64,000 nucleotides of DNA. It comes from an uncultured Bacteroidales bacterium. GTDB taxonomy: Bacteria; Bacteroidota; Bacteroidia; Bacteroidales; CAIXZF01. A program made the position numbers and the translations under genes. Numbering within the stretch: position 1 is the stretch's first letter; each line of letters opens with the position of its first letter. This document shows positions 32,709 through 33,491 of the stretch, in pieces. The DNA is taken from contig CAZSQJ010000012.1 in NCBI GenBank assembly GCA_964608665.1, positions 7,208 to 71,207 on the forward strand. Reading direction: 5' to 3'. The notes under the pieces were generated by a model. It worked only from the letters and a program-made list of their open reading frames with translations, searched no databases and was not told the origin of the DNA.

Positions 32709-33491
32709 ATGATCAGAGAAATCAAGATACTCAGCAAACATGGATGGCAGTATATCCCTGATCTTTCGGATGTTACTCTGCCTCAAACTTTCAGGGGACG
32801 ACCTGTGATTTCTGATGCGGTAACTGCTAATGAGGCTTCGCTGCTGAAGGAATGTTGTCCGGTGAATGCCATTGAAACATGTCCTGAACTTTCTATCCAT
32901 CTCGGAAAATGTCTTTTCTGCGGGGAGTGTATGCATGTTTGTCCCGGCAGGATCAGGTTTACCAACGACTTTCGTCTGGCCGTCAACCGGGAGGAACAAC
33001 TGGTGATCAAAGCCGGCATGACGGAGCCCTTGTATCCGGACATTTCAGCCATACGCCCGGAGATCAGGCGGTTGTTCAGACGTTCACTGAAGTTGCGGCA
33101 GGTTTCGGCTGGCGGAGACAACAGCACCGAAATGGAACTCAATGCAGCTGGCAATGTTAATTTTGATATGGGCCGCTTCGGTATTTCATTCGTGGCCGGC
33201 CCGCGGCATGCAGATGGTATCGTAGTGACCGGGCCCGTGACGGAAAACATGGCCGCCGCACTGAAACTGACATGGGAAGCTGTTGCCGAACCTAAAATAC
33301 TCGTTCTTGCTGGAACAGATGCCATCAGCGGCGGCCTTTTCCTGAACAGCCCGGCCATTGACCGTTCGTTCTTTGCATTGCACAAACCCGACCTCTGCCT
33401 TCCCGGGAATCCCGTGCACCCGTTGACTATTATCCACGGACTGACTGCATTGATGGGAAATCGGCTGCGGAATATCAATCCCCGAAAATAA
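32709..33491 (+). CDS. Fusion of a HyfH/HycF-like ferredoxin module and a HyfI/HycG (NuoB-like) small subunit, the latter lacking all four [4Fe-4S] cysteines
   Basis: 260 aa. N-terminal part ...[16 protein letters not shown]....[14 protein letters not shown] has one intact CxxCxxCxxxCP motif and one reduced to its final CP. C-terminal part ...[13 protein letters not shown]...[27 protein letters not shown]...[17 protein letters not shown]...[12 protein letters not shown] is collinear with NuoB/HycG (..GGCNGCEIE.., ..GACA.SGG.., ..IPGCPP.P). Confidence 0.8.

Follow-up and report, generated by a model that had tools for sequence, protein, structure and literature searches.

The last gene of a six-gene operon in the window (by which we mean the whole 64,000-nucleotide stretch of DNA analysed here, from an uncultured Bacteroidales bacterium) very probably encodes the small subunit, EhrS, of an energy-converting-hydrogenase-related (Ehr) complex that has lost its proximal cluster and carries a selected D-x-D/E-N replacement of the ligands. 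The Ehr class and its NuoI-NuoB fusion are already known. No description of such a loss with D-x-D/E-N, or of its convergence, was found in the literature searched, with the founding Ehr papers (Coppi 2005, Marreiros 2013) standing outside that search.

The ehrABCDLS operon and its assignment to the Ehr class

Six tightly packed genes read in one direction (26093–33491, plus strand), with ehrS as the last; they are as follows.

26093–28204, plus strand: ehrA, NuoL/HyfB-like antiporter subunit, 703 aa
28206–29117, plus strand: ehrB, NuoH-like membrane subunit, 303 aa
29062–29748, plus strand: ehrC, HyfE-like membrane subunit, 228 aa
29754–31172, plus strand: ehrD, antiporter-like NuoN/HyfF-like subunit, 472 aa
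31085–32692, plus strand: ehrL, NuoC+NuoD-like large subunit without NiFe ligands, 535 aa
32709–33491, plus strand: ehrS, NuoI/HycF-like domain (about residues 14–104) fused to a NuoB-like domain (about residues 122–250)

In the ORF translation of the window, ehrS runs from an ATG at 32709 to a stop at 33491 and gives 260 aa. The order A-B-C-D-L-S is kept at nearly every homologous locus with enough upstream DNA, across dozens of species-level genomes. The ORF starts of ehrA, ehrC and ehrL (26093, 29062 and 31085) overlap upstream genes or add non-homologous leaders, and the true starts are likely M43 (26219), M20 (29119) and M35 (31187), respectively. Convergent to ehrS lie genes for an XRE-family HTH regulator (64 aa) and a DUF2178 membrane protein (33475–34060, minus strand); the 3' end of the regulator gene overlaps the end of ehrS by ~17 nt, and the pair is not kept beside ehr operons in other genomes. 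An ehrS-type gene with D-x-D-N and no ehrA-L genes upstream is found in four Prevotellaceae MAGs (L030, at 9989–10747, L027, L072 and L074), which by their isolate names probably come from one sampling study. In L030 the 10 kb preceding this gene encode an unrelated surface protein; in these four MAGs, ehrS may have become unlinked from the operon, or else the contigs were wrongly joined.

Ehr complexes are described as homologous to group 4 hydrogenases and complex I, with the NiFe ligands missing and no established function (PMC7894505, PMC6349859, PMC10284858, PMC5037454); a physiological role is not established for any Ehr complex (PMC10284858, PMC7894505). NuoI-NuoB and NuoC-NuoD fusions have already been described for many of them, according to a supplementary note to one paper (PMC6349859 Supplementary Note 4, citing Marreiros et al. 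2013). The window operon has the corresponding make-up: NuoL-, NuoH-, HyfE- and NuoN-like membrane subunits accompany a large and a small subunit, the group 4-related large subunit EhrL is without CxxC NiFe ligands, and EhrL and EhrS are NuoC-NuoD and NuoI-NuoB fusions by Pfam, with Complex1_30kDa and Complex1_49kDa both matched in EhrL. The earlier note had considered the fusion in EhrS notable in itself and had placed the gene in a Hyf frame. The fusion is a known Ehr trait (PMC6349859 Supplementary Note 4), seen in every relative examined including those with four Cys, and the appropriate frame is Ehr, since EhrL lacks NiFe ligands.

When EhrL is aligned to HycE and MbhL, the NiFe Cys columns are occupied by A235 and S238 (N-terminal) and by S529 and G532 (C-terminal), with motif L1 (RxCGxC) now ESIAGDS and L2 (DPCxxC) now NLSYCGHDL, where the protein ends. 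The L1/L2 Cys motifs and the C-terminal maturation extension of a group 4 [NiFe] hydrogenase are both absent, EhrL ending in ...CGHDL. Assignment to complex I (Nuo) fails on the missing N2 ligands and on NCBIfam Nuo scores far below cut-offs, and assignment to Mrp, an MrpA-G set without a peripheral arm, fails on the presence of NuoB-, NuoD- and NuoH-like subunits, as only the antiporter-like module is common to both. No NCBIfam model is above cut-off for any of the operon proteins, with Nuo and Hyf equivalog matches falling far below their curated cut-offs. The EhrL C-terminus (residues 522–535), F-P-x-C-N-K-S-F-N-L-S-Y-C-G-x-D-L, is almost invariant, also in relatives that keep the EhrS Cys. 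C531, D534 and L535 are each found in 69/69 sequences and C522 in 61/69; D237 is invariant and H242 present in 68/69. Together, the C-terminus, D237 and H242 may form a candidate new site at the former NiFe centre.

Several known systems offer points of comparison. The Ehr complex of Geobacter sulfurreducens, with EhrA-D, L and S as GSU0739-0745 (Coppi 2005, Marreiros et al. 2013, via PMC7894505, PMC6349859, PMC4758237), resembles the window operon in its six-gene cluster, its NuoL-, NuoH-, HyfE- and NuoN-like membrane subunits, its NuoC-NuoD-like large subunit devoid of NiFe Cys and its NuoI-NuoB-like small subunit. Beyond what is described for the Ehr class, EhrS of the Bacteroidales clade is also devoid of the proximal [4Fe-4S] ligands, and relatives with an identical operon layout still have them. 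The Pyrococcus furiosus membrane-bound complex MBH (6CFW; MbhJ, MbhN, MbhL) supplies the best sequence match of the NuoB-like half of EhrS, MbhJ. In MBH, however, J and N are separate subunits, and the complex has three [4Fe-4S] clusters as well as a NiFe site, whereas EhrS is one polypeptide with one cluster site, in a complex without NiFe ligands. The two halves of EhrS also align to HycF and HycG of E. coli FHL (hydrogenase 3 and 4; 7Z0S HycG, HycF, HycE; Hyf), and the window membrane subunits are nearest HyfB, HyfE and HyfF, though below NCBIfam cut-offs; unlike FHL/Hyf, the window complex has no NiFe site and neither a proximal nor a distal cluster. Antiporter-like subunits with Glu/Lys at the TM5, TM7, TM8, TM11 and TM12 motifs are common to Mrp antiporters and the window complex, but Mrp has no NuoB, NuoD or NuoH homologues, and the window complex retains one Fe-S site and the entire 'universal adaptor'.

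In the membrane arm, EhrA keeps every conserved charged residue at the TM5, TM7, TM8, TM11 and TM12 motifs (E182, K260, K291, K388 and E443), EhrB has about a dozen invariant carboxylates (including E124, E132, E183, D190, D191, E197 and E203), and E123, K209 and K327 are conserved in EhrD. The conservation of the EhrA charged residues and EhrB carboxylates indicates that the ion-translocating module is under selection. One residue of EhrD departs from its family: position 382 (30897–30899), in the 'PPSG.F..E' TM12 motif, is Gly (GGG) in the window and Glu in no fewer than 93% of 66 homologues, among them L001 with its 82% identity. We take this Glu to be the NuoM E407-type residue of antiporter-like subunits. 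The GGG codon is one transition from GAG; G382 may reflect an error in the consensus, or it may be a genuine substitution with an inactivating or modulating effect.

No conserved partner gene (formate dehydrogenase, NuoEF, flavodoxin or similar) stands beside the operon, the most widely shared flanking family occurring at 12/80 loci. Formate dehydrogenase and hyp genes are absent from the operon neighbourhood, and Pfam assigned no energy-metabolism function to ten further large genes of the window.

Cluster ligands in the two halves of EhrS

The domain structure of EhrS is supported by both sequence and predicted fold. Residues 141–248 match PF01058 (Oxidored_q6) with 54.3 bits against a cut-off of 27, and residues 63–79 match a single Fer4 motif (Pfam). 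HMMER comparison with solved structures paired the C-terminal half with MbhJ (6CFW_J, E 8e-20) and HycG (7Z0S_G, E 2.5e-17), and the N-terminal half with HycF and MbhN. The AlphaFold2 model, built with 73 homologues as input, has a pLDDT of 90.7 and a pTM of 0.88, and its NuoB half superimposes on MbhJ (6cfw_J) with a target-normalised TM-score of 0.84 and an rmsd of 1.7 Å, MbhJ being the second-best structural match of EhrS by Foldseek E-value. The domain thus belongs to PF01058 by sequence (Pfam) and by fold (Foldseek), without the four Cys that hold the proximal/N2 [4Fe-4S] cluster in this family.

In the HMMER alignments, the four Cys columns of the proximal [4Fe-4S] cluster of MbhJ and HycG are occupied in EhrS by D137, T140, D204 and N234. 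The segment with D137 and T140 aligns to 'vnsgscngcdiei' of MbhJ and 'vdcggcngceiei' of HycG, the D204 segment to 'aigacptgg' and 'sygacgnsgg', and 'lpgnpvhp', which contains N234, to 'vpgcpprp' and 'ipgcpptp'. An earlier note, made from the DNA alone, had arrived at the same alignment and concluded that all four Cys are replaced, and both readings hold against MbhJ and HycG. The HMMER alignment to solved structures keeps the columns as D/T/D/N and uncovers no set of four Cys hidden by misalignment. By homology to four Cys arranged around one cubane, D137, D204 and N234 would lie close to each other.

A protein database search with EhrS scored 8,000 candidates (7,998 at E ≤ 1e-5), of which the best 120 were analysed; these are full-length fusions of 57–82% identity, mostly from Bacteroidales (metagenomic clusters). 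Among these best 120 matches, D137 and H237 are each present in 120/120 and N234 in 118/120, and position 204 is Asp in 113 and Glu in seven. Column 140 is unconstrained (C 70, A 24, T 10, G 8, with N, S and Q among the others). Across the same 120 sequences, no Cys is conserved in the NuoB-like half. The D/T/D/N pattern therefore recurs in homologues for D137, D/E204 and N234, and drops out for T140, where Cys, Ala and Thr alternate. On these alignments the conserved signature of EhrS is D-x-D/E-N plus H237, of which H237 is ancestral.

The ferredoxin half has been reduced as well. NuoI, HycF and MbhN carry two CxxCxxCxxxCP motifs for 2x[4Fe-4S]; in the alignment of EhrS to HycF, motif II is intact (C68, C71, C74 and C78-P), and motif I has no CxxCxxC and retains only its final Cys-Pro (C50-P51). 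The only invariant Cys of EhrS are C50, C68, C71 and C74, each found in 120/120 of the best database matches. The position of C78 is not conserved, with 44 Leu and 34 Cys among the 120, as is to be expected if the cluster it would help to ligate is absent. In the canonical wiring of 2x[4Fe-4S] ferredoxins, a Cys set such as C50, C68, C71 and C74 makes exactly one cluster. By that wiring, the lone cluster is presumably the equivalent of NuoI N6b, the medial cluster neighbouring the former N2 site. Four invariant Cys suffice for one [4Fe-4S], in agreement with the earlier estimate of at most one cluster in this half.

Conservation and origin of the D-x-D/E-N pattern

The pattern is equally constant between species. 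A scan of one genome per species gave 210 relatives, and in the best 80 of these together with the window (81 sequences) C50/C68/C71/C74 and D137-x-D/E204-N234-H237 are present in 81/81. EhrS also has the highest median identity to the window of the six subunits (58.7%, the other five lying at 46–57%) and is the single most conserved subunit in 35/58 complete loci. With the pattern in 81/81 genomes, the highest identity in EhrS and a kept operon, random decay is all but excluded. The earlier proposal of remodelling rather than random decay is upheld by the near-invariance of D137, D/E204 and N234, by the species-level counts and by the independently acidic second lineage described below; columns 137, 204 and 234 do not hold the random residues in the 120 sequences that decay would leave. 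As far as these comparisons go, the D/D/N substitutions of EhrS are remodelling under selection.

The Cys-retaining relatives place the loss within the Ehr class. An exhaustive search of 1.84 billion representative proteins returned 3,277 homologues, of which the top 150 were inspected. Within this top 150, the nearest sequences outside the clade (45–51% identity) include P0124 from Cloacimonadota and P0128 from Wallbacteria. These two, together with L085–L087, have the same fusion and a single ferredoxin-type cluster and keep all four Cys; P0124 and P0128 also carry H237. The closest Cys-retaining relatives sit in the same A-B-C-D-L-S operon, and their EhrL has the same ESIAGD(T/S)..GH and CNKSFNLSYCGHDL motifs as that of the clade. 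One of them, L087, has two ehrA genes, as in Geobacter. In a neighbour-joining tree, which is rough and carries no support values, the D-x-D-N clade is nested within four-Cys sequences. Since the closest relatives keep four Cys and the clade is nested among them, the loss is derived, and in the Bacteroidales form it probably concerns only the proximal cluster.

A second Cys-less group (DVDSS, DIDDP, DDDST, DEDSP, DCAAS) branches elsewhere in the same tree, beside other Cys-retaining sequences, so the loss occurred at least twice. Its operon has the order (DUF190)-B-C-D-L-S-A; L089, a Cys-retaining member of this second lineage, has the L-S-A part of the order, its contig starting one gene upstream of L. 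Among the top 150 of the 3,277 homologues, columns 1 and 3 are Asp or Glu in most Cys-less patterns, and the fourth column is not fixed across the other acidic lineages, with N, H, A, D and S occurring. The Cys loss and the gain of acidic residues thus appear to have occurred independently in a second Ehr lineage. In L083 (4958–13161), L084 and L090, the second Ehr-like lineage shows the order B-C-D-L-S-A followed by a universal stress protein gene, and in L083 and L084 a DUF190 (PII-like) gene precedes the operon. The second-lineage large subunit has the motifs ER.SG... and SFGLS.A..DR, with no Cys at the former NiFe site. An apparent further lineage without any Fe-S ligands (P0125 and P0156, with V, A and V at CxxCxxC) was rejected as a frameshift artefact, because their contig, L091, is indel-ridden and V/A at TGY codons is the product of a shifted frame. 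Nearly every gene on this contig is split, housekeeping genes included, as is typical of uncorrected long-read indels.

Positions that changed along with the ligands were identified by comparing 120 clade members with 17 Cys-retaining relatives. Of ten clade-specific positions in EhrS, the most pocket-relevant, ligand columns aside, are G/A139 to S, A200 to L, I241 to F, L31 to R and 116 to R. The bulk of S139, L200 and F241 is compatible, at the level of sequence, with a filling of the cubane space. EhrL has only four minor clade-specific positions, and the comparison of clade with Cys-retaining EhrL revealed no clade-specific new basic residue to pair with D137/D204; the charges of D137/D204 are therefore not neutralised by a new EhrL salt bridge.

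The former cluster site: proposed mechanism and alternatives

We propose that the proximal (N2-type) [4Fe-4S] cluster of EhrS has been replaced by an acidic pocket of D137, D/E204 and N234, flanked by the clade-specific S139 and the ancestral H237, which would leave one [4Fe-4S] in the NuoI-like domain as the only remaining cofactor site of the peripheral arm. Electron tunnelling is limited to about 14 Å, and in MBH and complex I the medial cluster lies more than 20 Å from the large-subunit site. By analogy with these complexes, the lone EhrS cluster would be an estimated >20 Å from the EhrL pocket, too far for physiological electron tunnelling. With no proximal cluster and the lone cluster at such a distance, we infer that the wire from donor through the cluster chain to the large subunit is cut. 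The two carboxylates might restore the net charge of -2 that an oxidised [Fe4S4(Cys)4] has; alternatively, they might hold protons or a hard cation (Mg2+, Ca2+, Mn2+ or Fe2+). The pocket would then take the place of the cubane, structurally and electrostatically, where EhrS meets EhrL and EhrB. The complex would still be ion-translocating, possibly in a redox-independent mode like that of Mrp, with a coupling site that is not driven by electrons arriving via EhrS, and the retained EhrS cluster may be structural or a redox sensor.

Taken as a whole (an EhrS without the proximal cluster, a selected acidic pocket as charge or cation stand-in, and a cut wire), this statement has in our judgement an even chance of being right. 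Its mechanistic part, the cut wire and the charge or cation stand-in, is put forward tentatively, at somewhat below even chances. A broader formulation, in which the N2/proximal redox centre has turned into a carboxylate/cation site and the adaptor and antiporter machinery is driven or gated either by ions or protons or by a new O/N-ligated metal centre, convergently in at least two Ehr lineages, is doubtful. One point against the proposed mechanism is that the EhrL pocket motifs are equally conserved in the cluster-less clade and in the Cys-retaining relatives. Such equal conservation is odd if the pocket needed electrons from EhrS, and it also fits the arrival of electrons via a non-cysteinyl metal centre. 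The invariance of the lone [4Fe-4S] ligands argues that some redox or sensing role may persist.

The pocket might instead be purely structural, with hydrogen-bonded or protonated carboxylates and hydrophobic bulk, no ion and no electrostatic or coupling role, the arm then being a lid on an Mrp-like antiporter. The bulk-adding co-substitutions would suit such a pocket, as would the resemblance of the membrane subunits to Mrp, Hyf and Nuo antiporter modules and the lack of an oxidoreductase partner gene conserved beside the operon. However, a space-filler needs no two acids, yet independent lineages have repeatedly taken Asp or Glu at columns 1 and 3, and a structural pocket does not explain why the ferredoxin-type cluster and the EhrL pocket are invariant; we regard this explanation as unlikely.

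The main rival holds that the D/D/N pocket (with H237, and with or without Cys140) binds a redox-active non-cysteinyl metal and that the complex remains a redox-driven pump, the centre being either a single Fe or Mn or an atypical Fe-S cluster with O/N ligation, which in each case would pass electrons from the NuoI-like [4Fe-4S] on to the EhrL pocket. Invariant ligands of the ferredoxin-type cluster and EhrL pocket motifs identical to those of Cys-retaining relatives speak for it; Asp, Asn and His commonly coordinate hard or borderline metals, and ligation of a [4Fe-4S] by a single Asp is known, for example in Pyrococcus furiosus ferredoxin. Column 140 is Cys in 70/120 sequences, but it is variable (A, T, N, S and Q also occur), and we know of no precedent for a cubane with at most one Cys ligand. 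The bulky A200L and I241F suggest a filled cavity, and the variation of the fourth column (N, H, A, D, S) in other acidic lineages also counts against a fixed metal site, making this rival rather improbable.

That the operon is a degenerating hydrogenase or Ehr remnant with neutral substitutions is highly improbable: all canonical catalytic ligands are indeed missing (the Cys of the NiFe site and of the proximal cluster, four each, and three of the distal cluster) and the window EhrD has G382 at the family Glu position, but ORFs and gene order are intact in dozens of species-level genomes, the replacement residues are kept in 81/81 (the best 80 of 210 plus the window, with D/E at 204), no other of the six subunits reaches the median identity of EhrS, the AlphaFold2 model is confident and the antiporter residues are conserved.

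Ehr complexes are widespread relatives of complex I and the energy-converting hydrogenases, and the clade described here is represented by thousands of metagenomic proteins and occurs in at least 80 Bacteroidales genomes at species level. The clade keeps the whole machine under purifying selection, yet swaps the cluster nearest the coupling site for two carboxylates and an amide. Database records currently annotate such genes as 'NADH:ubiquinone oxidoreductase' or 'Ni,Fe-hydrogenase III small subunit', and the findings warn against both annotations. The clade represents a natural experiment on what the cluster contributes to coupling, be it charge, electrons or structure, and sister complexes that differ essentially only in the EhrS ligands offer the comparison.
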